Origin: an uncultured Candidatus Saccharibacteria bacterium | GTDB lineage: Bacteria; Patescibacteriota; Minisyncoccia; UBA6257; 2-01-FULL-56-20 | Direction of reading: 5' to 3' | Assembly (NCBI GenBank): GCA_964505005.1 | Contig: CAZDFQ010000001.1 | Coordinates: 114,458-178,457 of the forward strand | DNA length: 64,000 nucleotides | Shown: piece after piece, positions 6,583-58,857 of the stretch | How positions within the stretch are numbered: position 1 is the stretch's first letter | How the letters are laid out: the number at the start of each line of letters is the position of its first letter | Position numbers and translations under genes: made by a program | Notes under the pieces: model-generated | What the model was told of the DNA's origin: nothing | Databases searched by the model: none | What the model saw: the letters and a program-made list of their open reading frames with translations, nothing else

Positions 6583-6585
6583 TTA

Positions 6586-6624
6586 CTATTATTATATCGC
6601 ATATGCGATATAATAATAGTAATT
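6586..6624. promoter_or_regulatory. Family D AT-rich palindromic element (CTATTATTATAT-CGCATATGCG-ATATAATAATAGTAATT) placed 4 nt upstream of the tsaC start codon. It contains TATAAT on both strands.
   Basis: Conserved arms with a variable palindromic core; other copies at 7518-7556 and 58819-58857. Confidence 0.4.
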
Positions 6625-7480: not shown

Positions 7481-7517
7481 CGTCCAAATTATTAATTAAC
7501 TAAATTCAAGCTGTTTA

Positions 7518-7556
7518 CTATTATTATATTACAATTGTAATATAATAATAGTAATT
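7518..7556. promoter_or_regulatory. Family D element (core TACAATTGTA) between the rnhA stop and the HAD hydrolase start.
   Basis: CTATTATTATATTACAATTGTAATATAATAATAGTAATT. Confidence 0.4.
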
Positions 7557-9155: not shown

Positions 9156-10988
9156 CTACGCTACTTCTTGATTGTAGCATTCTTCGCAATACACGATTTC
9201 CGGACGCTCCGGCGCATAAGCGGTCTCGAACTCATTCGGGCAGGGTTCGGCCCCGTGAAAATGTCTCGTAGTATTTTCATAGACGATTTGCGTTTGGCTC
9301 TTGGCGCTTTGCAAGCCTGTGCACATACATTTCCGCTTCTGCAGTTTCATCGGATTCCGGTTTTTCAATCTTTCGGCATAGCGGCAGCTCGGGCACAAGC
9401 GCGGCAGGGGCAAGCCGAATCTTTTGTAGAAATCGAACTCGTTCCTGATGAACCGAAAAGCGCCGCCGCATCTCAAACAGCCGATGGTCTTGGCCAATAA
9501 ACTCTCGTCTGCGTCTTTGATATGGTCAGGTAAATCAACGGCTGGCACAGCAATCCAGAATTCTCTTTTCTTGGGCTCGCGCCAGAAATAGCCCCTGGCT
9601 TCGGCAGCGGCGCGGCTCAACGGATAATAATCCTGGGCCTTGGTCTCGTTATAGGCGAGCGGCGAAAATTCCGGCGGGAAAAACTCCCCATACTTGTAAA
9701 CAATTTCCCTTGTCTCTTGTCCCTTGCCTGCCCCGTTGGAAGCTTGCTTTCCTGCGGGGTTGCTTGTCACTCGTGAAATATAGGGCATTTCATCCATATG
9801 TCTGACAATTTTCTCCCGCAGAGAAAAATATTCATCTTTTGAATACTCTTTATTGAGAATGCAATACTGCTGTTTTTTCAGGCCAACGCAGCCGAAGAGA
9901 TCGGAAGAAGAATGGCAATTTACTGAATACTCCAAGTCGCGGCAGGCCGGCCAGCAATCAAAACAGAATTTTAAATTATGGCAGCTGTCGCCGCAATTCA
10001 CCGACTCATATATTAGTTCAACATTCTCGCCCCAATTGCTGTAATCATAAGAATCCTTAACATATTGGCTAGTATTATGAATGAATTTGGAATTTTCCAC
10101 GCCGCCCACCTCGTAACAATGACGGGCGTTCTTAGACCAATAAACATAGTCGCCGCTGATGTTAACGCAGTCCGGCGTCGAATGGATGTATTTAACCGGA
10201 AAATGCAAACGGAATTCCTCGAATTCTTTTTTTATTTTGAGAAGCGACTGATAAGAGCCAAGGTTAAATTCTTTGAGTTTTTTCTCGTGGTCCTCTTTGG
10301 TGTAGGGCGTGTTGAAAATATGATATTTTTTATGGCTCAAGCTGACGCAGCCAAAGCAATTCTGACAATCAGTACAATCCACTAAAAACCATGAATTCAG
10401 GCAGTCCGCCGCCTCTTCGCTGAAAAATACCTGATAACAATTGTTGACCCGATAGAGCTCATAACACAATTCACTGGAAAGAGTGCAATAAAAATCGAAA
10501 GAGCTGCGCATTCCAACAAACGCCACGCCGTAGGCACAATCTTCGCCATTGCCGGCGTTAAAACAGAGATAACAATTTTTCAAATAAGACGCCTTGTCAG
10601 AATAATCGCTATTTATCAGCCCCCTTATCGAACGCGAGGGCCAAGGCACCGAATAATAAAGTTCTTTGAACTGCTCGAAAAATGGCCGCGAGAAATCGTA
10701 ATCCCGGCCGTAATCCAGGGGATTCCATTTATCCGACCACCAGTAATCGTGCTCGTAAATTTTAAGCGGCGCTTCTTCTGGCCAGCCCGAAAACAACCCC
10801 TTGCCGGTTAAGCTGTCTTTGTTTCGAAAAAGATTATGCTCATTCCAGAAAATCAGCCGGCGCACGGCCCGGCACTCCGGACACCAGGTCGGCGCCGGCA
10901 CGCTCATTCTTTTGTAAAACTGAAAATCATCCGGCTCAATGACGAATTCCGATTTACAGTTTTGACATATTTTGGTTTCTCGAGTCAT
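9156..10988 (-). CDS. Cysteine-rich paralog 1 (610 aa). Zinc-ribbon-like motifs sit at both termini with internal Cys-rich repeats; family and function unknown.
   Basis: N-terminal CQNCKSEF...FYxKxxVPAPTWCPECR. C-terminal ...FxFYxxxxLPLPRLCPSCR...HFHGxxxCPNEFETAYAPERPEIVYCEECYN. Internal repeated NCFGCVxLxxKxYCIxNKxYSKxEY units. It shares all of these with the ORFs at 11183-12958, 13013-14842 and 38711-40489. Confidence 0.7.
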   Translation of the reverse strand: MTRETKICQNCKSEFVIEPDDFQFYKRMSVPAPTWCPECRAVRRLIFWNEHNLFRNKDSLTGKGLFSGWPEEAPLKIYEHDYWWSDKWNPLDYGRDYDFSRPFFEQFKELYYSVPWPSRSIRGLINSDYSDKASYLKNCYLCFNAGNGEDCAYGVAFVGMRSSFDFYCTLSSELCYELYRVNNCYQVFFSEEAADCLNSWFLVDCTDCQNCFGCVSLSHKKYHIFNTPYTKEDHEKKLKEFNLGSYQSLLKIKKEFEEFRLHFPVKYIHSTPDCVNISGDYVYWSKNARHCYEVGGVENSKFIHNTSQYVKDSYDYSNWGENVELIYESVNCGDSCHNLKFCFDCWPACRDLEYSVNCHSSSDLFGCVGLKKQQYCILNKEYSKDEYFSLREKIVRHMDEMPYISRVTSNPAGKQASNGAGKGQETREIVYKYGEFFPPEFSPLAYNETKAQDYYPLSRAAAEARGYFWREPKKREFWIAVPAVDLPDHIKDADESLLAKTIGCLRCGGAFRFIRNEFDFYKRFGLPLPRLCPSCRYAERLKNRNPMKLQKRKCMCTGLQSAKSQTQIVYENTTRHFHGAEPCPNEFETAYAPERPEIVYCEECYNQEVA

Positions 10989-11182: not shown

Positions 11183-12958
11183 TCAGATAACTTCTGCGTT
11201 GTAGCATTCCCGGCAATACACGATTTCCGACCGGTCCGGAGCAAAAGCTGCTTCAAATTCATTAGAGCAATGACTGGCGCCGTGAAAATGTTGCGCCTGA
11301 TTTTTATACACGCTGTTTTCGCTTCCTTGTCCCAGGCACTGACATTTTCTTTTCCAGAAGCGCAAAGGATGCGGCTGGTCCTTTAATTTTTCCCGCAAGC
11401 GGCAGAAAAAACACTGGCGCGGCAAAGGGACATTCATCTGCCTGGAGAATGAAAGTTCCTGCGGAATAATGCGAAAGGCGCGGCCGCAGGTCTTACAGCC
11501 GATGGTTTCTTTCAGAATCGACTCGGAAACATCGCGAATGTGGTCAGGAATATCGTCCGCTGGCAAAGTAATCTGATATTCTGTCGGTTCAACATCTTTC
11601 CATTCGTAACCCTGGGCTAAGGCCTCTTCTTTGCTTAAAGGAAAATAAACAAAGGCAAATGATTCGTTGTAAGCCAATGGCGAAAGCTCGAGTGGGAAAA
11701 ATTCGCCGTAGCGATATACCCTCCCTCGCTTATCTTTATAGGGAGCGGCTGACATTTGCTGGATAATCCTCGGCACAAGTTTTTCGTATTCCTCTTTGGA
11801 ATATTGTTTGTTAAGAATGCAATACTGCTTTTCCCGGAGCGAAACGCAGCCGAAAATATTGCTGCAGGCGTCTATACACATCCAGCCATACTGCACCTCG
11901 CGAAGATTGTCATAACAATTGGCCGTAAATTTTATGTTAAAAATATTCAAGCCGCTCATCGCCACTTCGTAAATCAATTCCGCCACGTCTCCCCAGGCAA
12001 AATAATCATAGGCGCTGGCTACCGGCTTTGTTTCAACAAATGAAACATAGCGAGAATCTTCTACGCCTTTCACCTCGAAGCATTTCTGGCAGTTTTTTGA
12101 TTCAAACACCAAAAGCCCGGTTACGTCCTTGGAAAATTCCTGCCAAGATGTTTTCACCGGATATTTCAGCCAGTGTTTTCTGGCTTCTTCTTTAAGCCAA
12201 GTATAAATTTTATACGAGCCGAGGTCCCATTCTTTGAGTTTTTCAAAATATTCCTCCTTAAGATAGGGCTTATTAAAAATGTAGTATTGTTTGTTCCGAA
12301 GATTGGCTGAAGCAAAACAATTCTGGCAGCCCCAGCACTGCCAGAGAAAAGCCGAGTTGTTCGATTCGTTGGTCCAGTTAAGATTCACGCCGCCATAATC
12401 TTTCCAGCAATGAAACAAGTCATAAGAATATTCGCAGGAATCGGCAAAAACAATGTTATAGCAATCTTTTGAACGATTGACAAAATGGCCATAAGCGCAG
12501 TTCTCAATGTAATCCGCTTCAATAAGAAGATAGCAGTTTTTGCCGTGGCCAAAGAGGTTGTTATACGGCGAAGTCGGCGAAAAAACCGGATAATCGGTCC
12601 ACAGCCCAAGGTGCGGTACGCGCCTCATCAGCTCGTCGAGCTGTTCGAAAAACGGTCTGGAAAAATCGTAGTCGCGGCCGTATTCCAGCGGGTCCCAATT
12701 GTCAGACCACCAACAAGAAGTGCAGTAAACCGTGTAGGGCTTATCTGCCGAGTAAACTGAAATGAATTCTTTACCGCACAAATCGCATTTTCTTTTGTAT
12801 AAACTGGCGAAACTGACCTGAGCCATCCGCCGCTGGAGCCGGCACTCCGGACACCAAGTCGGCGCCGGGACTTTTATTTTCTCGTAGAATAAAAAATCCT
12901 CGGGTTCTATTACGAACTCCGATTTGCAATTCTGACAAACCTTCTTTTCTGACTGCAT
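11183..12958 (-). CDS. Cysteine-rich paralog 2 (591 aa), which retains an extra CxxC...CxxC pair near the N-terminus.
   Basis: It has the same N- and C-terminal motifs as paralog 1. A second ribbon, CDLCGKEF...YCTSCWWSDNW, is present where paralog 1 has lost the cysteines. Confidence 0.7.
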   Translation of the reverse strand: MQSEKKVCQNCKSEFVIEPEDFLFYEKIKVPAPTWCPECRLQRRMAQVSFASLYKRKCDLCGKEFISVYSADKPYTVYCTSCWWSDNWDPLEYGRDYDFSRPFFEQLDELMRRVPHLGLWTDYPVFSPTSPYNNLFGHGKNCYLLIEADYIENCAYGHFVNRSKDCYNIVFADSCEYSYDLFHCWKDYGGVNLNWTNESNNSAFLWQCWGCQNCFASANLRNKQYYIFNKPYLKEEYFEKLKEWDLGSYKIYTWLKEEARKHWLKYPVKTSWQEFSKDVTGLLVFESKNCQKCFEVKGVEDSRYVSFVETKPVASAYDYFAWGDVAELIYEVAMSGLNIFNIKFTANCYDNLREVQYGWMCIDACSNIFGCVSLREKQYCILNKQYSKEEYEKLVPRIIQQMSAAPYKDKRGRVYRYGEFFPLELSPLAYNESFAFVYFPLSKEEALAQGYEWKDVEPTEYQITLPADDIPDHIRDVSESILKETIGCKTCGRAFRIIPQELSFSRQMNVPLPRQCFFCRLREKLKDQPHPLRFWKRKCQCLGQGSENSVYKNQAQHFHGASHCSNEFEAAFAPDRSEIVYCRECYNAEVI

Positions 12959-13012: not shown

Positions 13013-14842
13013 TTATACAACTTCAGCATTATAGCAGGCTTCGCAATAAACGATTTCCGGCCTGTCGGGAGCGTAAGATGTTTCAAATTCATTGGGGCAA
13101 TGGTTAGAGCCATGGAAATGCTTAACAGCATTCTGGTAGATTATTTCTTGGTTCTCGCCGGCCCGCGATGAGCTTGTCGAACCTGCGCATTGGCATTTCC
13201 TGTGCCAGAGTTTGAGAGGATTCCTTTGTTTAATTCTCTGATAATGGCGGCAGTTGGGGCAGAAACGGGGCAAAGGCAGATTCATTTTCCGGTAAAACTG
13301 AAGTTCCTGAGGGATAATTTTGAAGGCCGTGGTGCAGCCGGCCGCTTCTTGTTCAAGAGTCAAACCCTTTCGGGCACCGGCGTTGCTGGCGCATTCGATT
13401 ATTTCATCAAGCATGGAATCCTCGACATCCTTTATGCGGTCTGGCAGTTGGTCGGCGGTCATCGTTATTTTGTAATTTCTTTCTTCGGGTTCTTTCCAGC
13501 CGTAGCCCTGTTTCTCTGCTTCTTCTTTAGTCAGAAGAAAATATTCCTGGGCAATGGTTTCGTTATAGGCGAATGGAGAGAGTTCCGGAGGGAAGAATTC
13601 GCCATACTTATAGATTCTGCCTTTTTTATCTATATAAGGCAGAGAATCCATCTGCTCAATGAGGCGAGGCAATAATTTCTCGTATTCTTCTTTAGGGTAT
13701 TGCTTGTTCAGAATGCAGTAGGATTTGTTGCGGAGGCCGATGCAACCGAAAAGATTAGAAGAATTATGACAATTGAAACTATAAAATACATTGTATGAAC
13801 CATAGACAACGCTTGTGCTGATAAGATGATAGCTCTGTCTGTCTCCTGAATCGAAAACTTCGTACATCAATGAACCTAACCCCGCTCCGGGGCCGGCATC
13901 ATATGAATCTTTCAACTGGACGCCTGCCCATTCAAGAAATTTACAATCTTCGGCTCCCTGAGCAATATCAAAACAAAAATGGCAATTTTTAGAATTTTCA
14001 ATATGGTCGCCGGTGACATCTACTGACCTCTGGATAGAGGCATAGCGATGGATGGATTTTTTTAATTCTTCCCGAAAAAGCGCTCTGAATTTTAAAAGGT
14101 TCGAATATCTTCCTAAATCGAATTTCTCGATTTTTTTAAGATATTCCTCCTTTGAATATTGCTGATTAAAAATGCAATAGGATTTATTTCTGAGATTCAC
14201 ACAACCGAAGCAATTTGAACAATTTTTGCAATCGTAAAGAAAAAAGGAATCGGTGCAATTGCCGCAGTCATTACTAAAAAACAACCGATAGGCCTTTTCA
14301 CAAAAGAGGTCATCGTAGCAAAGTTGCGATTCAATGACAGTATAAAGGTCCATTGAGTCCTTAACATAGAGAATACGATTTGAATACATTGTATTCTCGA
14401 TAAAACCCGAGGCAGAAATAAGGTAGCAGTCCTTACTGTCCATAGCCACATTACAATACTCGCTGTTGATGGCATTAGTGTTAGAAAGAGCAATCAGCGG
14501 GAATTTATCCCGAAGCATCCGGAATTGCCGGAAAAATGGCTGAGAAAAATCGTAATCGCAACCGTAATCGAGCGGATTCCACTTATCCGACCACCAATAT
14601 TTTTGGTCGTAAACCGTAAGTTTTTTTTCGGGAGAATAAATAGAAATAATATCATTACCGAAAGCGTCCTTCCGTTTGTAAAGCATCCTTTCGTTCCTGA
14701 AAGCCATTCTCCTTTTAAGTCGGCACTCCGGACACCAAGTCGGCGCCGGAACCTTGATTTTTTCGTAGAACAGAAAATCCGAAGTGTCTATAGCGAATTC
14801 GCTCTGACAATTTTGACAAACTCTTTTTTCAGAAATAGCCAT
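13013..14842 (-). CDS. Cysteine-rich paralog 3. The ATG at 14840-14842 (MAISEKRVCQNC...) is the likely start; the longest ORF extends to 14878 via a TTG.
   Basis: Conserved family motifs are present. The start was chosen by homology with the paralogs, which all begin M-x4-6-CQNC. Confidence 0.65.
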   Translation of the reverse strand: MAISEKRVCQNCQSEFAIDTSDFLFYEKIKVPAPTWCPECRLKRRMAFRNERMLYKRKDAFGNDIISIYSPEKKLTVYDQKYWWSDKWNPLDYGCDYDFSQPFFRQFRMLRDKFPLIALSNTNAINSEYCNVAMDSKDCYLISASGFIENTMYSNRILYVKDSMDLYTVIESQLCYDDLFCEKAYRLFFSNDCGNCTDSFFLYDCKNCSNCFGCVNLRNKSYCIFNQQYSKEEYLKKIEKFDLGRYSNLLKFRALFREELKKSIHRYASIQRSVDVTGDHIENSKNCHFCFDIAQGAEDCKFLEWAGVQLKDSYDAGPGAGLGSLMYEVFDSGDRQSYHLISTSVVYGSYNVFYSFNCHNSSNLFGCIGLRNKSYCILNKQYPKEEYEKLLPRLIEQMDSLPYIDKKGRIYKYGEFFPPELSPFAYNETIAQEYFLLTKEEAEKQGYGWKEPEERNYKITMTADQLPDRIKDVEDSMLDEIIECASNAGARKGLTLEQEAAGCTTAFKIIPQELQFYRKMNLPLPRFCPNCRHYQRIKQRNPLKLWHRKCQCAGSTSSSRAGENQEIIYQNAVKHFHGSNHCPNEFETSYAPDRPEIVYCEACYNAEVV

Positions 14843-14844
14843 AG

Positions 14845-14958
14845 ATTTCAGTACAAATAGAGCGGAGTCCCGCACCAAGCTTTACTTTGGTGCGCGGGTT
14901 CCGGTTCGATAGGGAACTCGATTTTACAATTCTGGCAGGTCCTGCTCTCTGATTCCAT
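14845..14958 (-). pseudogene. Degraded N-terminal fragment of a further Cys-rich paralog (~37 codons).
   Basis: The minus-strand translation is MESESRTCQNCKIEFPIEPEP...AWCGTPLYLY*. It matches the family N-terminus (CQNCKSEFVIEPEDF...PTWCPEC) but carries deletions and a premature stop. Confidence 0.55.
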
Positions 14959-14968
14959 AATTTTATTA

Positions 14969-14994
14969 TTCTCTAATTCGAGCGAATTAGAGAA
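14969..14994. repeat. Family B palindrome copy overlapping the ArsR-family gene stop.
   Basis: TTCTCTAATTCGAGCGAATTAGAGAA, exact. Confidence 0.7.
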
Positions 14995-15256
14995 GAGTCA
15001 AAATATTCTTGGCAGCCACTGGCTTATCGTCTGCCAAACGATAAAACATCTGCAAACTTCTTTGTTCTTTCTCAACAATATCGGCAGCTGCCAGAATCGC
15101 CAGATGTTTGGAGGTCGCTTTGAAAGAAAGATTTATCTCATCAGCGATTTCTCCAACCGGCGCTTCGCGATGTTCTTTGAGATAGCGGAGAATTGCCAAT
15201 CGCCGCCGATTCGCCAAGGCCTTTAATTGTCTCTCCAATTCTTTTTCTTTCATCAA
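14987..15256 (-). CDS. ArsR/SmtB-family HTH transcriptional regulator.
   Basis: LANRRRLAILRYL...VGEIADEINLSFKATSKHLAIL winged-HTH pattern; 89 aa. Confidence 0.7.
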   Translation of the reverse strand: MMKEKELERQLKALANRRRLAILRYLKEHREAPVGEIADEINLSFKATSKHLAILAAADIVEKEQRSLQMFYRLADDKPVAAKNILTLL

Positions 15257-15289
15257 TCAAATTATACTACATTATCCTTAATTCTCTTA

Positions 15290-19237: not shown

Positions 19238-20998
19238 CTATTTCCTGATTTTCTCCATCGCGTATTTTACATCCACGCCGACTTTTTTGCGGGGGTTGAA
19301 AATGTTGAGCGGGTCGAAAATTTTCTTGACCTCTTCGAAAAGTTTATAAATTTTTTCGCCATACATCATTTTGAGATATGGTCCGCGAATCAAACCGTCA
19401 TTATGCTCGGCAGTGATGGACCCGCCGTATTCGAGAACGAGCTGGTAAATTTTTTCCATAGAATCGAACATAATCCGGGGAACTTCCGGGTCTTTAAGGT
19501 CAACCAGCGGAATAATGTGGAAATTGCCGTTGCCCGGATGGCCGGCAATGGTATAAATCAATTTATCTTTGTGTTCGTCGAGAATGGCGTTCACCTTCGG
19601 CAAAACTTCCGGCAGATATTCCGGCTTGACAATGACGTCGTCAACGAACGGCGCGGCGTATAATCCTTTGATATGACTGTGAAGAAGCGCGAAACTCTGG
19701 CGCCTGATGGTCCAGTATTTTTCCGCTTCTTCTTCGTTTCTGACGGCTCGGACTTGAACCGGAAACTTTTTCGCGGCCTCAATGACTGATTTTATTTTGC
19801 CATTCAATTCTTCTTCATCATCCGAACTCAATTGAACGAGAATGGCCATTCTCGGAATGCCGCCTTTTAAAACCAACCAAAATTCCGGCAGAAATTCGAA
19901 GGCGAGCTTGATGATGTTGCCTTTCATCATTTTAATGAGCGAAGGCAGAAATTTCAGGGCCAGACCAAGCGTTTTGTCGTCATAGGATTCGATGCTTTCT
20001 GGCTTGAAAGGCAGAATCATTTTCACCAGTTCCGGCACCGGCTCGAGAGTTTTAGAGAAAATGACAATGAGTCGTGAAAATTTTTTCTTTCTGACGAGCC
20101 GCAGCTTGGCTTCGGTCACAAGCCCCAGCGTACCCTGACTGCCGACGATAAGTTTTACAAGATTGAAACTCTTTTTGTCCCAGACATTCCAGAGGGCGTA
20201 GCCGGCCGAGTTTTTGGAAACATCCGGCTTGGCTTTTTTGATGGCTTCGTAATTTTTTTCAATAAGTTCGTAAATCTGCTTATAAATTCTGCCTTCGAAA
20301 GATTTTTCTTTTATTTTTTTCTGGAGCTCTTTTGCCGAAAGCGGTTTTATTTCGTGCTCTTCGCCGTCTGCCAAAACAATTTTCAGCGATTCCACATAAT
20401 CCTCGGTTTTTCCATATTCAAGGGTTTTCTCGCCGCCGGAGTTATTGCTGACCATTCCGCCGATGGCGCAAAGGTCTTTGGAAGCCGGAAAAGTCGGAAA
20501 AAGCAGACCTTTCTCGTCAAGGGCTCTCTCCAGGTCGCGATAGTAGACGCCGGGCTCAACCATAACACGACCACTACCCTCGCCAGAACGAGAACCGGAC
20601 ATTCCAACATTCTGCAGAATGTTGGAATGTTTTTTATTGGGAGATGGAGCCGAATCATCGGGAAGGACAACAATTTCCTTTATGTGGTTAAAATACTTAG
20701 TAAATGAAATGACTATCGAATCGTTGAGCGGGCCGCCGGACATATCCGTGCCGGCCGAGCGGGCAGTCAATGATAGCTTAGAGCTTTTTCCGCCCAAGGC
20801 GGATCCGCCTTGGGCGGAAGCTTTTAGTTTAGAGCTTACGAATTTTACGAGATTTTTGACATCTTCAGCGTCTTTCGGAAAAACAACCGCCTGGGGCGTT
20901 ATTTTAAAAATCGAGGCGTCAACGCTATATTCGTCCAAAATTTTCGGCTCAGCAGAAACATCGCCTTTTAGGATTTTTTTCAGGTCATTAATTAACAT
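19238..20998 (-). CDS. FAD-linked oxidase (GlcD / D-lactate dehydrogenase-like) carrying an in-frame palindromic insertion.
   Basis: It has the FAD-binding PCMH-type N-terminal domain and a C-terminal FAD-oxidase domain. A 30-nt perfect palindrome at 20600-20629 codes ...HSNILQNVGM... within a low-complexity SGSRSGEGSG segment. Confidence 0.65.
   Translation of the reverse strand: MLINDLKKILKGDVSAEPKILDEYSVDASIFKITPQAVVFPKDAEDVKNLVKFVSSKLKASAQGGSALGGKSSKLSLTARSAGTDMSGGPLNDSIVISFTKYFNHIKEIVVLPDDSAPSPNKKHSNILQNVGMSGSRSGEGSGRVMVEPGVYYRDLERALDEKGLLFPTFPASKDLCAIGGMVSNNSGGEKTLEYGKTEDYVESLKIVLADGEEHEIKPLSAKELQKKIKEKSFEGRIYKQIYELIEKNYEAIKKAKPDVSKNSAGYALWNVWDKKSFNLVKLIVGSQGTLGLVTEAKLRLVRKKKFSRLIVIFSKTLEPVPELVKMILPFKPESIESYDDKTLGLALKFLPSLIKMMKGNIIKLAFEFLPEFWLVLKGGIPRMAILVQLSSDDEEELNGKIKSVIEAAKKFPVQVRAVRNEEEAEKYWTIRRQSFALLHSHIKGLYAAPFVDDVIVKPEYLPEVLPKVNAILDEHKDKLIYTIAGHPGNGNFHIIPLVDLKDPEVPRIMFDSMEKIYQLVLEYGGSITAEHNDGLIRGPYLKMMYGEKIYKLFEEVKKIFDPLNIFNPRKKVGVDVKYAMEKIRK
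20600..20629. repeat. 30-nt perfect palindrome CATTCCAACATTCTGCAGAATGTTGGAATG, inserted in-frame in the FAD-oxidase CDS.
   Basis: Self-complementary, so both strands encode ...HSNILQNVGM... A related copy is at 38678-38703. Confidence 0.75.
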
Positions 20999-22732: not shown

Positions 22733-22762
22733 GGCCAAGTCATACCAACATTCTTAAGTTTA
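22733..22762. repeat. Direct repeat (copy 1) flanking the small HTH regulator gene: ACCAACATTCTTAAGTTTATAGGTATG.
   Basis: The second copy at 23088-23112 is in the same orientation. The ACCAACATTCT start resembles the 20600 and 38678 palindromes. Confidence 0.6.
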
Positions 22763-22774
22763 TAGGTATGTTTA

Positions 22775-23050
22775 TTATGCCCGCCGGAAGAATTTTAAAA
22801 AGCGTACGAATGTTTGTCCGTATGGAGAAAGCGAATGTTCTACAAATTTACCGCGATATTTTTTATTGATAAGTCCCGCCTGAGAGAGCCGCCGGGTATG
22901 TTCGCCAATCGTTTTCTCGTTTGCTCCTATTTCTTTTACTATATCTTCCAACGTGATTCTGTCTCGATTAGCAATAAGAAGTAATATTTCAATACGATAA
23001 TGATTGGCAACGCCCTTAAGGTGGCGCTCCATCTGTTTTGCGGTCTTCAT
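22775..23050 (-). CDS. Small winged-HTH regulator (ArsR-like, 91 aa) flanked by ~30-nt direct repeats. It is a candidate controller of the adjacent R-M genes.
   Basis: HYRIEILLLIANRDRITLEDIVKEIGANEKTIGEHTRRLSQAGLI HTH pattern. Direct repeats ACCAACATTCTYAAGTTTATARGTATG lie at 22733-22762 and 23088-23112. Confidence 0.6.
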   Translation of the reverse strand: MKTAKQMERHLKGVANHYRIEILLLIANRDRITLEDIVKEIGANEKTIGEHTRRLSQAGLINKKYRGKFVEHSLSPYGQTFVRFLKFFRRA

Positions 23051-23087
23051 TTTACCCGTATCTTTACGATGTATTTAATCATACACA

Positions 23088-23112
23088 ACATACCAACATT
23101 CTCAAGTTTATA
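23088..23112. repeat. Direct repeat (copy 2) upstream of the HTH regulator gene: ACCAACATTCTCAAGTTTATAAGTATG.
   Basis: See copy 1. Confidence 0.6.
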
Positions 23113-23411
23113 AGTATGTTATTTGTTGGTTTAGTTAGAATTGTTTAGTTTAAACTATCGAAATTATTCCTTGAGCCCCTTGATTCTTTCTTCGATTACC
23201 TTCCGGAAATAAGCCCGCAGCTCGAGTGGAGATCTCTGCCGTCTCGCGGACAACACCCCTCTCATCCCCTAAGTCATTTATAAATCACCTCTTCTATTTC
23301 CTGACGCTGTATTTTGGGCTACCTTCTGTTATGCGTCGCTATCGAAACTATTTTAAAAATATCATCTCCGGCTTGAGGTGTCTCATCAATAAGTTCCATA
23401 TACTTAAGCCG

Positions 23412-24350
23412 CTATTTTCTTTTGCTTTTAAGCAATTTCCAGGCCTCGGGATTATTAACTCTGAAGTTAATCTTACTAGAAGAAGTATTTGAATCATCCG
23501 GTAAATATTCTCGTTTATTATTTTTGCTCTGATACAAAATCTTAAATTCGGCATCCTTAAACAAAGAATTATTGATGCCTAATTTATTTTTAATAATATC
23601 TAAGTATTGTTCATTTATTTCATAGCCGATAGAACTTCTGCCTAAAGAAGCCGCGGCCTTCGTAGTTGTCCCGCTCCCCAAAAAGGGATCAAGCACTGTT
23701 TCGCCAACAAAGCTAAACATTTTAATAATCCGCCTTGGTAGTTCTTCTGGAAACATAGCAATATGACCATTTTGTTTTACGCCGGCGAAATTCCAATGGC
23801 CCGTGAAATATTTCCTCCATTCTTCTTTGGTTAGCTTTGATTTTTCTTTAATTTCATCGCTTATATTATTTGGAGATTTTCCTAACTTTTTAAAAATTAA
23901 AATAAATTCATAGTCAATTTCTATCAAGCCGTTGCGAGGATAAGGAAAAGAACCCATTACTGAAGCGCCCCCAGTGGTATTCATTGTTGTTTTTTTCTGC
24001 CAAATAATTGCCCCCATATAATCAAACCCTATTGATTCGCAAAACCTAATTATCTCTTCGCGAATAGGGATTATTTTGTAGCGTCCGTAAGTAACTGCCC
24101 GGGCAAACTGGTCTCCGATGTTAATTATTAAACGGCAACCTGGATAAAGAACGCGATAGCATCCCTGCCACACTTTATTCAAATTCTCTATGTACCCCTC
24201 ATAAGTATCATTAAAACCAATCTGTTCAATTGAGCCGTAATCTTTCAACTGCCAATATGGCGGCGAAGTAACAACAAGGTGAGCTGATTCATCCTTGAGC
24301 TCTGTCATACCGCGCGAATCTCCAACTATTATTTTATGTGTGGTTTTCAT
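23412..24350 (-). CDS. Beta-class DNA methyltransferase (N6-adenine or N4-cytosine; ParB-less).
   Basis: Motif IV SPPY (VVTSPPYWQ) is N-terminal and motif I DPFLGSGTT is C-terminal, which is the beta-class order. Confidence 0.8.
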   Translation of the reverse strand: MKTTHKIIVGDSRGMTELKDESAHLVVTSPPYWQLKDYGSIEQIGFNDTYEGYIENLNKVWQGCYRVLYPGCRLIINIGDQFARAVTYGRYKIIPIREEIIRFCESIGFDYMGAIIWQKKTTMNTTGGASVMGSFPYPRNGLIEIDYEFILIFKKLGKSPNNISDEIKEKSKLTKEEWRKYFTGHWNFAGVKQNGHIAMFPEELPRRIIKMFSFVGETVLDPFLGSGTTTKAAASLGRSSIGYEINEQYLDIIKNKLGINNSLFKDAEFKILYQSKNNKREYLPDDSNTSSSKINFRVNNPEAWKLLKSKRK

Positions 24351-24370
24351 AATTTATATGCTTTCATCAA

Positions 24371-25054
24371 TTATAGCACGTCATCGGCATAAATTTCTAG
24401 GCCGGATTTCGTCTTTTTATAAAAGATAATTTTTACTCCAATTTCTTCTCTAAGAGCATTCTTAGTCTTGTATGTTATCGGTTTTATTGAGACCGGCGTC
24501 TTATCTATAAAACCATCAATTCCTCTGGATTCTTCTTCTGGAGTCGCTAAACGATAAGAGGTATCTTTCAAATTGGCAATCTTTTTCAAAACCGCCTCTT
24601 GGAACCGTAAACCAACAAATGTTTTTTCTAATACTAAATCCTCTACCCAGATTTCAACCATATCTTTGTCTATTCTACCTATTGCCTCTTTTAATTTCTC
24701 AATCATATCATTAATTTTTCCAGAGGCATTTTTAATAGCACTTGGATAATTTTCAAGGCACCATTCTTTCCACGCTCCGTAAGTTTTAGCTTTAGATGAT
24801 TTTACAAGTTCGGAAAGCTGCCCAACAACCCTAGGTCGCGTTCCTTGAGAATTTTGATTAGCAAGATTAATAATTTGGGTTGTATATTTCGGGAATTCTT
24901 TAATCTCACCTATCAGCTCACGAATTAATTCTTCGTTTTTTATTTTAATCATCATGTTTTTACTCCCTCTATCTCTTATAAATCGCTTCTTTGATTTCCT
25001 GCCGGGCTGCCTTAATTCTTTATAATTATGGGCCGTTTTAAGGTCAGAGGACAA
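24371..25054 (-). CDS. Putative type II restriction endonuclease partner of the methyltransferase.
   Basis: It lies 20 nt upstream in the same orientation as the MTase and shares the AT-rich island. A possible PD...(D/S)xK-like segment is GIDGFIDKTPVSIKP. Apart from that possible segment, the call rests on context. Confidence 0.35.
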   Translation of the reverse strand: MSSDLKTAHNYKELRQPGRKSKKRFIRDRGSKNMMIKIKNEELIRELIGEIKEFPKYTTQIINLANQNSQGTRPRVVGQLSELVKSSKAKTYGAWKEWCLENYPSAIKNASGKINDMIEKLKEAIGRIDKDMVEIWVEDLVLEKTFVGLRFQEAVLKKIANLKDTSYRLATPEEESRGIDGFIDKTPVSIKPITYKTKNALREEIGVKIIFYKKTKSGLEIYADDVL

Positions 25055-37535: not shown

Positions 37536-38678
37536 TCAAGACACGAATTTTCCCACAATGTCGGTTTCATATTCCAAACGCCGGCTTTTGGCTTCAGCCG
37601 CGTCAACTACGGCTTGTTCGATTAAATCGGAAATTTGCTGTTTGAAAGAAATACCGCTCGCTTCCCAGAGATAAAAAGCCATTGAGCCGGGAATGGGATT
37701 AATTTCGGTAAGATAAAGTTTTTTATCATTGGTGTACATAAAATCAATCCGCACCATTCCCTTGCACCGGCAGGCCACAAAGGCCTTTTTGGCCGATTCC
37801 TGCAAACGCTTTTTCAGGTCATCGTCTATTTTGGCCGGTAATTCCCTTTGCAAAGACGCCATGCCGGCGCCGGTTTTTTTGCCGCCCCGCTGGTATTTAT
37901 CGGCAAAACTCAAGATTTCATCTTTGGAAAAAGGCCGCTCGATTTCGCTCGCTTCTACTTTGCCGCCAACGACCCTGACGCTGCAGTTGTATTCGACAAA
38001 CGAAGAAAGATATTTTTCCACCAGAATTTCATTGTCAATAAAAGCTGCTTCCAGCAAAAATTTTTCCAGCTCCACTTCGCTGCGGCTGATTTTAATGCCG
38101 ATGCTTGACCCCAGATGAACCGGCTTGATGATGGCCGGTAAACCGAGTTTTTGAATGATTTTTTTGCTGGAGTTTTCCACATCTTCTTTAATTTCAAAAG
38201 AAAATAATCTCGAGCCGGGCGCGGTCTCAATCCCGGCTTCGCTGACGACCTGTTTCGTCAAATACTTGTTCATCGTCAACACTGACGCTTCCTGATTGGG
38301 AGAAGTGAAAGGAATGCCGATGGTTTCAAAAAGCCCCTGGAGAGGGCCGCTTTCTCCCTGGCCGCCGTGGAAAGCGAAATAAGCCGCATAAGGATAAATT
38401 TTTTTAGGCAACCAGCGGCCGGTTTTCATAAAACCGCCGCGGGCATCCAAGCCGAACACTACCGGCTTCCGGGAAGAGCGGAAAAAGCCGCTCCGATTTT
38501 TAAGCTGCGGCAGATAAAGAATCTCGCCTTTTTTGGCCAGATAAATCACATAAGGCTCGTAAAGGCCGGTGTCAATATTTTCAAGAACCTGCAGACCGGT
38601 AATGACTGAAACCTCGTGCTCGGAAGACACGCCGCCGAAAGCGATGATAACGGGTTTAACCATAAGATAATCAGACAT
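37536..38678 (-). CDS. ddl: D-alanine--D-alanine ligase (ATP-grasp).
   Basis: N-terminal IIAFGGVSSEHEVSVITG; ATP-grasp C-terminal domain; 380 aa. Confidence 0.7.
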   Translation of the reverse strand: MSDYLMVKPVIIAFGGVSSEHEVSVITGLQVLENIDTGLYEPYVIYLAKKGEILYLPQLKNRSGFFRSSRKPVVFGLDARGGFMKTGRWLPKKIYPYAAYFAFHGGQGESGPLQGLFETIGIPFTSPNQEASVLTMNKYLTKQVVSEAGIETAPGSRLFSFEIKEDVENSSKKIIQKLGLPAIIKPVHLGSSIGIKISRSEVELEKFLLEAAFIDNEILVEKYLSSFVEYNCSVRVVGGKVEASEIERPFSKDEILSFADKYQRGGKKTGAGMASLQRELPAKIDDDLKKRLQESAKKAFVACRCKGMVRIDFMYTNDKKLYLTEINPIPGSMAFYLWEASGISFKQQISDLIEQAVVDAAEAKSRRLEYETDIVGKFVS

Positions 38679-38703
38679 TCTAACATTCTGCAGAATGTTA
38701 GAA
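38678..38703. repeat. 26-nt perfect palindrome TTCTAACATTCTGCAGAATGTTAGAA between the paralog 4 stop and the ddl start codon.
   Basis: It shares the AACATTCTGCAGAATGTT core with the 20600 copy. It differs by a symmetric (compensatory) A/C..G/T change in the arms. Confidence 0.7.
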
Positions 38704-38710
38704 TATTAAT

Positions 38711-40489
38711 TTAGACCACTTCGATATTATAGCATTTCTCACAATAAACAATCTCCGGCCTTTCCGGCGCGTAAGCCGTCTCAAATTCATTCGGACAATG
38801 ATTAACGCCGTGAAAATGGCTGGTTTGATTTTGATAAACCGCATTCTCTGATTGCTCGCCCGCACACTGACATTTCCGATGCCACAGCTGTAATGGGTTC
38901 AACCACTTCAGCCGTTCTTCGTGCCGGCAGTTCGGACAAAGACGAGGTAGAGGGAGGTTCATTATTTTATAAAATTGAACTTCTGCTTGCGTAATTTTAA
39001 ATGCCGAAGTGCACTGATGTTCACACCCGCTCTTATGCAAACAACCAATGACTTCCTCGGTTAGTTCATCAGGAATATCTCGGACGTTATCTGGCAGTTT
39101 TTCAGCCAGTAAACTGATGCGATAATTCTTCTCTTCATAATCTTTCCATGGGAACCCCTCATCAATAGTCTCTTTTTTGTTAAGCGGATAATACAATTGC
39201 GCAACTGTTTCATTATAAGCAAAAGGAGAAAACTCTGGCGGAAAAAATTCTCCAAAGCGATATTCTAATCCTCGAGCACCGCGATAGGGTATCTCTATCA
39301 TTTGTCGTTTAATTCCTGAAACAAGACGCTCATATTCGCTTTCAGAATACTGCTTATTAAAAATGCAGTATGATTTTTGTCGCAGGCTGATACAGCCGAA
39401 AACATCATGGCAGTTATCTATATACTCGGAATAACATACATTATGACCAGTCCAACAACGATTGGTAAACGTTACGCGGTAAACTGAAAGGGCAATGTTT
39501 AAATCTTCATATAAAAGCTCGGCGTTTTCTCCGGCAGTATCCACATCATACACATCGTGGATATTATTCAAAATATGAAGCGAATATTTACAATTCTCCG
39601 CCTGATAGGCAAAAAAGCAATGCCGGCAGTTTCTAACGTCAGTCATATAATTGCCCGTTGAATTAACTCCGTTAATAATATCAACAAAACGCCGCGGTTG
39701 GGTTAGATAAAAAGCTTCTACTTTTTTTGCCGCTTTTTCAATCCCGGTTCGGGTTATCAAGTTGAAACTGTTTAAAGTTTCCTCATACTCTTCTTTAGTA
39801 AGTTGTTTATTAAAAATGCAATATTTTTTGTGACGAATATTAATGCAACCGAAACAATTGTGGCAATCAAAGCAATATTTTAAAAACCAGCTCTCGCTGC
39901 AGTTGTATATGGCGGGGTAACTATAACGCACCTTGAACGAATCGAAAGCGGCATTGGTCTCATAGCAGAGTTCTACGCGAGTGCCATAAGCATTATCCAC
40001 ACTATCTTTGCAGTGTTGCATCCAATAGCCGTGCTGAAGATTTTCGTTATAGGAACTCTCTACAAGAAAGTAGCAATTTTTATTATTGGTTGACAAATGA
40101 GAGTAATGAGTATTTAGGCTGTTGCGATTTATGAGAGCGATTCTCGGCACTTTATCTGACAGCTTTTTCCACTGCTCGAAAAACGGTTTTGAGAAATCAT
40201 ATTCCTGGCCGTAAAAAAGAGGGTCCCAGTGGTCTGACCAGTAGCATTCTTGACAATAAATCGGAAAGGGAGCTGAGACGGAATAAATTGAGATAACGTC
40301 TTTTTTGCAAAGCCCGCATTGGCGGCGATAAAAATTCCGCTCATTGCGAAAAACAGCGCGCCTCGCTGTTCGGCACTCCGGGCACCAAGTGGGCGGCGGG
40401 ACGCGGAGGCGATCGTAGAAATTAAAGTCATCCGACTCAATCGTGAACCGGTTCTTACAGTTCTGGCAAGTTTTTGTTTCAGGGGTCAT
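38711..40489 (-). CDS. Cysteine-rich paralog 4 (592 aa) of the family at 9.1-14.9 kb.
   Basis: N-terminal CQNCKNRFTIESDDFNFYDRLRVPPPTWCPECR and C-terminal ...LPLPRLCPNCR...HFHGVNHCPNEFETAYAPERPEIVYCEKCYN. Confidence 0.7.
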   Translation of the reverse strand: MTPETKTCQNCKNRFTIESDDFNFYDRLRVPPPTWCPECRTARRAVFRNERNFYRRQCGLCKKDVISIYSVSAPFPIYCQECYWSDHWDPLFYGQEYDFSKPFFEQWKKLSDKVPRIALINRNSLNTHYSHLSTNNKNCYFLVESSYNENLQHGYWMQHCKDSVDNAYGTRVELCYETNAAFDSFKVRYSYPAIYNCSESWFLKYCFDCHNCFGCINIRHKKYCIFNKQLTKEEYEETLNSFNLITRTGIEKAAKKVEAFYLTQPRRFVDIINGVNSTGNYMTDVRNCRHCFFAYQAENCKYSLHILNNIHDVYDVDTAGENAELLYEDLNIALSVYRVTFTNRCWTGHNVCYSEYIDNCHDVFGCISLRQKSYCIFNKQYSESEYERLVSGIKRQMIEIPYRGARGLEYRFGEFFPPEFSPFAYNETVAQLYYPLNKKETIDEGFPWKDYEEKNYRISLLAEKLPDNVRDIPDELTEEVIGCLHKSGCEHQCTSAFKITQAEVQFYKIMNLPLPRLCPNCRHEERLKWLNPLQLWHRKCQCAGEQSENAVYQNQTSHFHGVNHCPNEFETAYAPERPEIVYCEKCYNIEVV

Positions 40490-48235: not shown

Positions 48236-48393
48236 GCTGAATATAAAACAATGTTATCATAACAATTGTTGATAGGCAAAATCCGTTTTATCTGCGCCGC
48301 TGGGCCATCGCCGTTATGATGTGCCCTAGCGACAGGCCGACTTATTGCTGCGCTTTTCATTTTACTCGGCGGCCTTATGAAAAAAGTTTAATC

Positions 48394-48420
48394 AAGTGTT
48401 ATGCCTGGGCATAACACTTG
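48394..48420. repeat. Family C palindrome copy (first of a pair 170 nt apart) between mraY and proS.
   Basis: CAAGTGTTATGCCTGGGCATAACACTTG. Confidence 0.7.
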
Positions 48421-48593
48421 ATTATTCCGTCGCGTTATAAATAGCCGGCTATCTCGACTGCTGATAAAACCTATTTGGAGATGCGAATATCGCCGATTTT
48501 GAAAAGGTTGTGGGAGTGAAGAGTTATAGAAGCGAGAGGATTATGGAAGTTGAACTTCAATAGAGGGTTTCAATAATAGTTGCTTACTAGAAG

Positions 48594-58740: not shown

Positions 58741-58818
58741 GATAGCCCCCGATTTTCTCAAAAACCTCGAAGTCGCCATTGCCGAGCAACTTATCTCCGG
58801 CACATCTTACCCGCTTTA

Positions 58819-58857
58819 CTATTACTAAATCACAATTGTGATTTAATAATAGTAATT
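58819..58857. promoter_or_regulatory. Family D element (core CACAATTGTG) in the divergent intergenic region between the LTD gene and nrdJ.
   Basis: CTATTACTAAATCACAATTGTGATTTAATAATAGTAATT. Confidence 0.35.

Follow-up and report, generated by a model that had tools for sequence, protein, structure and literature searches.

Patescibacteria have tiny genomes with very few regulators and, to our knowledge, almost nothing is known about how they control their genes. Repressors of the ArsR/SmtB family are autoregulated and recognize inverted-repeat operators, such as the 12-2-12 sites of SmtB and CzrA. Other short motifs, among them the binding sequences of Noc (NBS) and SlmA (SBS), the matS sites of MatP, parS, and the DNA uptake sequences and uptake signal sequences (DUS/USS), measure 9-16 bp and can evolve in place. 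Among palindromic repeats, repetitive extragenic palindromes (REPs) are imperfect palindromes of 20-40 nt, one end of which carries a conserved tetranucleotide, GTAG or CGTC (PMC3733652), and Rickettsia palindromic elements (RPEs) are inserted in-frame in unrelated housekeeping genes, where they are translated as an extra, tolerated peptide (PMC10969869). Here we describe a palindrome of 32-34 nt that occurs twice in canonical form in a 64-kb stretch (the window) of contig CAZDFQ010000001.1 from an uncultured Candidatus Saccharibacteria bacterium, once inside the gene of a flavin adenine dinucleotide (FAD)-linked oxidase and once ahead of ddl. We propose, with a probability of roughly 0.55, that a small ArsR-type winged helix-turn-helix (wHTH) protein has this palindrome as its cognate DNA site, and that the site has been dispersed into intergenic spacers and permissive protein loops.

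Copy 1 (ACATTCCAACATTCTGCAGAATGTTGGAATGT, 20599-20630, no strand assigned) is a perfect 32-nt palindrome of the C..G type, and contains the perfect 30-nt palindrome at 20600-20629 that an earlier reading of the DNA, made from the letters alone (the sequence-only reading), had pointed out. It lies in-frame within the minus-strand open reading frame (ORF) 19238..20998, where it encodes HSNILQNVGM (residues 124-133). The same peptide is encoded by a plus-strand ORF over copy 1, in agreement with the statement that it can be read from both strands. Copy 2 (ATTCTAACATTCTGCAGAATGTTAGAAT, 38677-38704, likewise unstranded) is a perfect 28-nt palindrome of the T..A type that extends to 32 nt (38675-38706) with a single C..A mismatch. 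Over their common span both copies differ in a single symmetric pair, TTCC..GGAA in copy 1 and TTCT..AGAA in copy 2; self-complementarity is thus preserved as the sequence-only reading had it, and the change that it wrote as CC..GG versus TA..TA was slightly garbled. The 18-mer core of the element is found twice in the window against 0.03 expected, and none of 100 shuffles gave two. A scan of the window with a position weight matrix (PWM) gave copy 1 as the top match (62.3), copy 2 scoring 57.7. With two variant copies, described below, the window total is two canonical and two variant copies in 64 kb.

The suspicion that the palindrome belongs to a repeat family was borne out, as at least 124 further copies are present in other genomes. 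The 18-mer core was searched for in a single genome of each GTDB species, and the resulting copy numbers are lower bounds; gene contexts in the scanned loci come from a simple ORF picker, and taxon labels are those of the submitters. The core was found in at least 119 loci, where about 9 would be expected by chance. The central 18 nt are identical across sites by ascertainment, being the search query, and the unsearched flanks are common to 124 of the 136 sites among the matches listed. The consensus consists of four octamers around a central GC, AACATTCY-AACATTCT-GC-AGAATGTT-RGAATGTT. Flanked sites occur in Patescibacteria, to which the window itself belongs (under labels such as Saccharibacteria, Paceibacterota and Liptonbacteria, among many more), and in the Planctomycetes-Verrucomicrobia-Chlamydiae (PVC) group, whose carriers are Kiritimatiellia, Verrucomicrobiota and Lentisphaerae. 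About 12 sites without flanks constitute the expected chance background; they take in every match outside Patescibacteria and PVC (Clostridium, Methanobrevibacter, Bacteroidetes, Lachnospiraceae, Ligilactobacillus and Bathyarchaeia), the remainder being in Patescibacteria contigs.

The source of these data is metagenome assembly, which calls for general caution, and a coincidence or an artefact of assembly or sequencing has to be considered. We give it next to no weight: a perfect 32-nt palindrome is expected by chance 1.5e-5 times per 64 kb, more than 100 assemblies, independent of each other and made in different projects, contain the element, and independent assembly of two further sequencing runs again gave the wHTH locus of the window, the adjacent GC-rich palindrome in the oxidase gene included. 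The palindrome is unreported in Rfam and in the literature searched. In gathering mode Rfam matched only one tRNA in the window, in E-value mode both sites returned generic hairpin noise far under thresholds, and the motif was not described in that literature either as DNA or as peptide. A phage origin was rejected, with a single match in 2.9 million viral contigs. As far as we know the LexA, Fur, PadR, dif and attC consensus sequences, the palindrome fits none of them, and these resemblances were dropped.

By far the commonest neighbor of the element is a gene for an ArsR/HTH_5-type wHTH protein of 88-102 aa, with 25 such genes in 24 of the 119 loci listed. Sites lie on both sides of 21 of these 25 genes, and the proteins of the bracketed genes measure 89-95 aa. 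The 5' site ends just ahead of a -10 box, and in the genes that we call type A, TATAAT comes directly after the site. The 3' copy overlaps or follows the wHTH stop codon, which falls inside the site (AAA ACA TTC TAA), and precedes the next gene, often tspO. The T..A form of the element contains one TAA, and this is the one used as stop codon of the wHTH gene.

The window has a gene of this family 2 kb from copy 1. It encodes a 91-aa wHTH that we call type B (22775..23050, minus strand), assigned by homology, HMM and PDB matches, and is 59% identical to the palindrome-bracketed wHTH of locus L112. The latter scores 28.3 bits with PF01022 (cut-off 22), a domain also annotated for the window protein, while NCBIfam HTH_metalloreg gives 36-45 bits, under its cut-off of 55; in the PDB, the best matches belong to the ArsR family (E = 0.0014). 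Metal or ligand sensing in ArsR/SmtB repressors relies on alpha3N cysteines or alpha5 His/Asp/Glu; the window wHTH has no cysteine, and no metal-sensing residues are evident in its sequence, the alpha5 positions not having been mapped. The type-B subgroup is very conserved and has more than 2,251 homologous clusters, of which the best 120 listed are 79-90% identical and include several lineages of the candidate phyla radiation (CPR).

On either side of this wHTH gene lies a copy of an asymmetric variant of the element, ACATMCTTAYAAACTTGAGAATGTTGGTATGT, that keeps the right half of the canonical site. Both were found with the PWM on the minus strand, one upstream of the gene (23087..23120) and the other directly after its stop codon (22739..22772). 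The variant sites are conserved at both ends of the wHTH gene in three other genomes, and the upstream one is at the same position in L123-L126. It overlaps the predicted promoter, whose -35 box (TTGAGA, 23105-23100) lies inside the site and whose -10 box (TATGAT, 23083-23078) lies 4 nt beyond it. This promoter is the best promoter-like match of the region (10/12), and the same layout of a -35 box in the site plus a -10 box is found in the predicted promoters of L123 and L125 and at type-A genes. The variant sites do not fold into significant hairpins, so what seems to be conserved at this home locus is the sequence and not the stem. Indeed, since the type-B variant lacks symmetry and does not fold significantly, yet is conserved in four genomes, a protein site is to be preferred here over a hairpin. 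The recognition helix of the wHTH tracks the site loosely, GEHTRRL going with GGTATGT and SQHT with GGAATGT.

Outside the window, about 17 further true copies lie in-frame in long, recognizable ORFs among the matches listed. Nine of the host proteins were confirmed with Pfam: phosphoglycerate kinase (PGK), MnmA, PrmC, TsaD, a 6-phosphogluconate dehydrogenase (6PGD)-like dehydrogenase, class II fructose-bisphosphate aldolase (FBA), TspO, MiaA and a Mur ligase. Intragenic copies make up 20-31 of about 111 classifiable ones. They use all three reading frames, with HSNILQNVGM predominating; all six frames of the C..G form are free of stop codons, and no out-of-frame intragenic copy was seen among the copies examined. 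Copies are at the same position of PrmC in two Kiritimatiellia genomes, and at the same position of a dihydroorotase-like protein in two other genomes. Three ortholog pairs allow a comparison: palindrome identity is 30/32 for the FAD oxidase (window and L096), and 32/32 both for PrmC (L029 and L097) and for the dihydroorotase-like protein (L054 and L086). Pooled, 94 of 96 palindrome bases are identical against about 72% in the flanks of ±60 nt. The 14 outer, unsearched bases are identical in 40 of 42 cases (P = 1.5e-4). The intragenic copies are thus more conserved than the surrounding codons. In the MnmA of L024 (L024:6659) we also found two adjacent element-derived peptides, HSNILKNVRM and HANILQNVSM, which implies that a symmetric-variant copy, ACATGCT..AGCATGT, is accompanied in tandem by a second, degenerate one.

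The host of copy 1 is a FAD-linked oxidase/dehydrogenase of 586 aa (19238..20998, minus strand) with the Pfam domains FAD_binding_4 and FAD-oxidase_C, 71% identical to a Liptonbacteria protein. Most of its orthologs have 545-550 aa and make a short turn (KEI-G.DY-AVVEPG) where the window protein has 31 additional residues: between KEI and EPG there are about 7 residues in insertion-free orthologs and 38 in the window oxidase, and the Pfam match to FAD_binding_4 is broken into two stretches. Ortholog alignment, Pfam and AlphaFold2 place this loop insertion at about residues 110-144 (20567..20671, minus strand). The AlphaFold2 model is confident overall (mean pLDDT 84.7, pTM 0.87), with pLDDT below 50 only at residues 66-72 and 116-139. 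The second of these stretches is the insertion, between strands 106-111 and 143-147, so that in the model copy 1 sits in a disordered loop. The earlier description of copy 1 as an in-frame insertion is in line with these results.

The palindrome is present at the same loop in the oxidase orthologs P0002 and P0014 (locus L096) and is absent from the closer relatives P0003-P0006. The window and L096 have recognizable sequence in common 3' of the palindrome, so their copies descend from one insertion. If the peptide occurred in orthologs without nucleotide symmetry, the palindrome could be coincidental, as the sequence-only reading had warned; the orthologs that carry the peptide keep the palindrome. 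Copy 1 is an old insertion that has been conserved as nucleotide sequence. In the same loop, other insert peptides recur in orthologs (..PSEASAKEGGY.., ..SPFDSAQGNGGY.., ..STGSGQAY..), and the column of window residues 110-147 holds other inserts in P0005, P0007, P0032, P0035, P0057, P0062, P0073, P0076, P0079 and P0094. The loop is an insertion hot spot, and the alignment suggests that other GC-rich repeat elements have entered it repeatedly. A second perfect 32-nt palindrome, TTCCGCCCAAGGCGGATCCGCCTTGGGCGGAA, lies in-frame in the same oxidase gene at 20788-20819 and encodes SAQGGSALGG. It consists of two adjacent hairpins, TCCGCC-N3-GGCGGA twice, and corresponds to the low-pLDDT residues 66-72; the double motif is also found, with different loops, in the Patescibacteria/PVC loci L008, L059, L065, L073 and L118.

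[quoted passage not shown] Copies would then persist for being harmless, their uniformity would come from continuing copying or gene conversion, and the element would target or carry the wHTH gene. The in-frame insertions in many unrelated genes, the patchy presence among oxidase orthologs and the occurrence in the window oxidase gene of another dispersed palindromic motif, of unrelated sequence, all agree with this, and so do the copies found in every intergenic orientation, convergent included. In the metagenome-assembled genome (MAG) CAZVCF01 the palindrome is the center of a repeated unit of about 140 nt with arms of CAAAATG/CATTTTG repeats, and at least four intergenic copies share this unit (L039:6872, L070:2003, L061:2088 and L119:3678); nothing else points directly to a larger element having spread in several copies. 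However, no target-site duplication was found at any boundary tested, and no transposase recurs near the copies, the recurrent genes being those of the wHTH, a PIF1-like helicase and TspO. Also, copy number per genome appears low, several contigs of 150-600 kb having only the wHTH-flanking pair among the matches listed. The window and L096 copies are near-identical while their flanks have diverged to about 60%, which suits selection better than recent spread, and near-identity across two superphyla needs a conserved reader. On balance we regard a purely selfish element as unlikely, but as a rival to be taken seriously.

The symmetry of the arms was analyzed across the family. At the Y/R position, 79 of the 124 sites are C..G, 38 are T..A and 7 are discordant (Fisher P = 2e-24), and the C..G and T..A types occur together in single genomes, this window included. 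Arm variants are nearly always symmetric; besides the one seen in MnmA, the rarer ones are ACATACC..GGTATGT, ACACTCT..AGAGTGT, ATATTAT..ATAATAT, CACATTC..GAATGTG and, in the oxidase ortholog P0002, AATATTC..GAATATT. Covariation at the Y/R position together with these rarer changes upholds the claim that the dyad symmetry itself is maintained. Past the conserved bases complementarity continues weakly (75% at position 17, 50% at 18 and 56% at 19), to fall to background by position 22.

A hairpin that is read on both strands would also require strict Watson-Crick symmetry, and the functional form of the element might be an RNA hairpin acting as intrinsic or bidirectional terminator, as 3'-end stabilizer or in translational coupling. 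The predicted hairpins are stable, with free energies of -13 to -22 kcal/mol: -19.3 (sense) and -21.8 (antisense) kcal/mol for copy 1, with z of about -5.5, and -17.1 and -13.1 kcal/mol for copy 2, the z-scores of both copies ranging from -4.4 to -5.7. Moreover, about one third of the intergenic copies elsewhere have A-run and T-run flanks, and many copies lie at gene 3' ends. Nevertheless, G.U versus C.A mismatches show no strand bias (13 sense, 14 antisense) and give no support for a strand-specific RNA structure; because there is no G.U preference on the sense strand, the constraint looks DNA-level or two-stranded and not that of a single RNA. The T-rich tails of copies 1 and 2 are on the plus strand, which is the antisense one for the oxidase, Cys-rich and ddl genes, and neither copy shows the layout of an intrinsic terminator, with a U-tract on the transcribed strand; both have a terminator-like appearance on the antisense strand only. 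The variants of the home locus are conserved despite their failure to fold, and a generic hairpin function, besides having no Rfam match, leaves the sequence identity across phyla unexplained. A functional RNA hairpin is, in our view, quite improbable. Between a hairpin and a dimeric-protein site, both of which had been put forward for the palindrome, the evidence tends toward a protein site at the DNA level, the symmetry of which would be maintained through selection related to a hairpin or through a mutational process.

Copy 2 was confirmed at the place originally described, between the stop codon of a Cys-rich paralog and the ddl ATG. It occupies the 32-nt spacer from the stop of the gene 38711..40489 (minus strand; a Cys-rich 592-aa protein assigned as an ORF with homology) to the first ATG of ddl (D-Ala-D-Ala ligase by Pfam, 37536..38678, minus strand, directly downstream), and overlaps that ATG. 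The stop codon is 4 nt from the 32-nt span of copy 2 and 6 nt from its perfect 28-nt core. A second ddl ATG at 38669-38667 (MVKPVII...) suits the N-terminal Pfam domain of Ddl better, and the true start is, judging by this domain match, likely at 38669. It is possible that a bound protein represses ddl, or that translation is coupled. For the latter, the RNA-hairpin explanation would have the first AUG masked in the stem until this is opened by the upstream ribosome, and copy 2 does begin 4 nt past the upstream stop and contains an AUG. The upstream gene is one of four paralogs in the window for CxxC-rich proteins of about 600 aa, 42-44% identical (9159-10988, 11186-12958, 13016-14830 and 38714-40489), which had no Pfam or NCBIfam match. 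In L109 a Cys-rich homolog has the palindrome 13 nt upstream of its start codon. More generally, intergenic copies often take up the entire spacer that separates two complete genes. Split genes and ribosomal bypass were rejected, as the copies abutted by stop and start codons separate distinct, complete genes.

Several observations weigh against the palindrome being a wHTH operator. The link between the protein and the site is drawn from adjacency only. The window wHTH is of type B, which goes with GGTATGT-type sites, and copies 1 and 2 have GGAATGT and AGAATGT; the matching type-A protein may be encoded outside the window or may be lacking in this genome. Of 75 intergenic copies, 19 lie between convergent genes, which is unusual for operators. 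There is no coherent regulon, since the downstream genes are diverse except for those of the wHTH, TspO and some of DNA metabolism. A -10 box beside dispersed copies is found in 27% of cases against 19-21% on sides without a downstream gene start, which is unconvincing. Finally, the very strong arm covariation is not predicted by a simple homodimer operator, so something beyond independent half-site recognition must be at work.

If the palindrome is nonetheless the site of the wHTH, the following course of events may be proposed. At the home locus, one copy over the -35 box and spacer of the wHTH promoter would allow autoregulation, and the second copy, at the wHTH stop, would control the next gene, often tspO. 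Further copies would have been placed elsewhere by a copy-and-insert process, for which hairpin-mediated template switching or recombination is a guess. Copies would survive only where harmless, that is, in tiny spacers such as the one before ddl or in-frame in disordered surface loops, and would then be held by DNA-level selection. The oxidase copy, translated as a floppy loop, probably recruits the regulator and might act as a roadblock or in local regulation, and copy 2 over the start region of ddl could repress or couple its expression. Arm covariation would need an extra ingredient, either selection for a hairpin or cruciform (e.g. in bidirectional termination) or template switching that copies one arm onto the other.

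Other features were noted near the element and in the rest of the window. A PIF1-like helicase gene lies beside the wHTH gene in seven loci (L002, L005, L031, L089, L093, L114 and L116), and tspO does so in L003, L046, L089, L098 and L117, plus L123 and L125; in L098 the palindrome is in-frame within tspO itself. Both genes are absent from the 64-kb window. Directly upstream of the window wHTH, the region 23412-25054 encodes an MjaI-type restriction endonuclease and an N4/N6 DNA methyltransferase, and the wHTH genes of L093 and L098 likewise adjoin restriction-modification genes. A second, distant ArsR-like wHTH (about 15030-15260, minus strand) is 36% identical to the palindrome-linked family, and an inverted repeat with 24-nt arms (14957-15006) adjoins its gene. 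Three intergenic palindromes of 40 nt (6583-6622, 7515-7554 and 58816-58855) have outer arms in common (TTACTATTATTATAT...ATATAATAATAGTAA), two of them being perfect and one 95% complementary, with TATAAT in each arm; no copies were found in the other loci compared. A further perfect inverted repeat (TAATCAAGTGTTATGCC..GGCATAACACTTGATTA), at 48389-48424, has arms of 17 nt separated by a gap of 2 nt, and its sequence shows no relation to the palindrome family.

We tentatively suggest the term mobile operator for a transcription-factor site that behaves as a small mobile element, has colonized spacers and essential genes across Patescibacteria and PVC, and has then been kept by DNA-level selection; this is a possible description of the family that we would hold at clearly less than even odds. 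If it were true, the site of a regulator would dictate an 11-residue peptide inside enzymes, and genome-reduced bacteria with very few regulators could use the insertion of ready-made sites to rewire genes or to insulate them. The TCCGCC-N3-GGCGGA motif in the oxidase would then point to a general process. Also, if the copies recruit the regulator, insertion of ready-made sites would be an unusual way of growing a regulon. The conserved wHTH, with its more than 2,251 clusters, and the 32-34-bp site form a pair that can be tested. DNA-level constraint can sit in essential coding sequence and override codon evolution. This is relevant to MAG annotation, in which the peptides HSNILQNVGM, TFQHSAECWNV and IPTFCRMLEC mark the element, to the alignment and structure prediction of CPR proteins, and to how short palindromes enter genes without breaking them.

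Among known systems, REPs and their REPtrons resemble the element in being short, hairpin-capable palindromes in intergenic spacers, often at gene 3' ends, two copies of which bracket a single-copy gene. Nevertheless, the element ends in AACATTC/GAATGTT and has no GTAG or CGTC head. Its copy number is apparently low, with about one fifth of copies intragenic and in-frame, whereas REPs are high-copy and extragenic, and it is near-identical across phyla while REPs are species-specific. The bracketed gene also differs, being that of an ArsR-type wHTH instead of RAYT, a Y1/HUH transposase.

RPEs and in-frame MITEs share with the element the in-frame insertion into unrelated genes. RPEs, however, are of about 150 bp and belong to one genus, whereas the element is five times shorter (32-34 bp) and present in Patescibacteria and PVC. 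The RPE/MITE class, of about 100-250 bp, has terminal inverted repeats and target-site duplications, and the element lacks a target-site duplication and is linked to the gene of a DNA-binding protein; the exception in size is the unit of about 140 nt, in MAG CAZVCF01 only. The sites of Noc, SlmA and MatP, parS and DUS/USS provide a different likeness, as specific motifs kept in ORFs for a DNA-level function and constraining the peptide. Those motifs are small enough to arise where they are; the 32-nt palindrome must have been inserted, because it is perfect and lies in a loop that orthologs lack. Unlike the sites of Noc and SlmA, parS or DUS/USS, it is linked to no ParB-, Noc- or SlmA-type protein and to no competence receptor.

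The systems of ArsR/SmtB repressors differ from the one described here in that its site is of four octamers and 32-34 bp, with a second site at the stop codon and copies inside coding sequences, and its protein is free of cysteine. In agreement with them, the element is a dyad-type site that an ArsR-fold wHTH has over its own predicted promoter, and its multi-part structure is compatible with more than one dimer.

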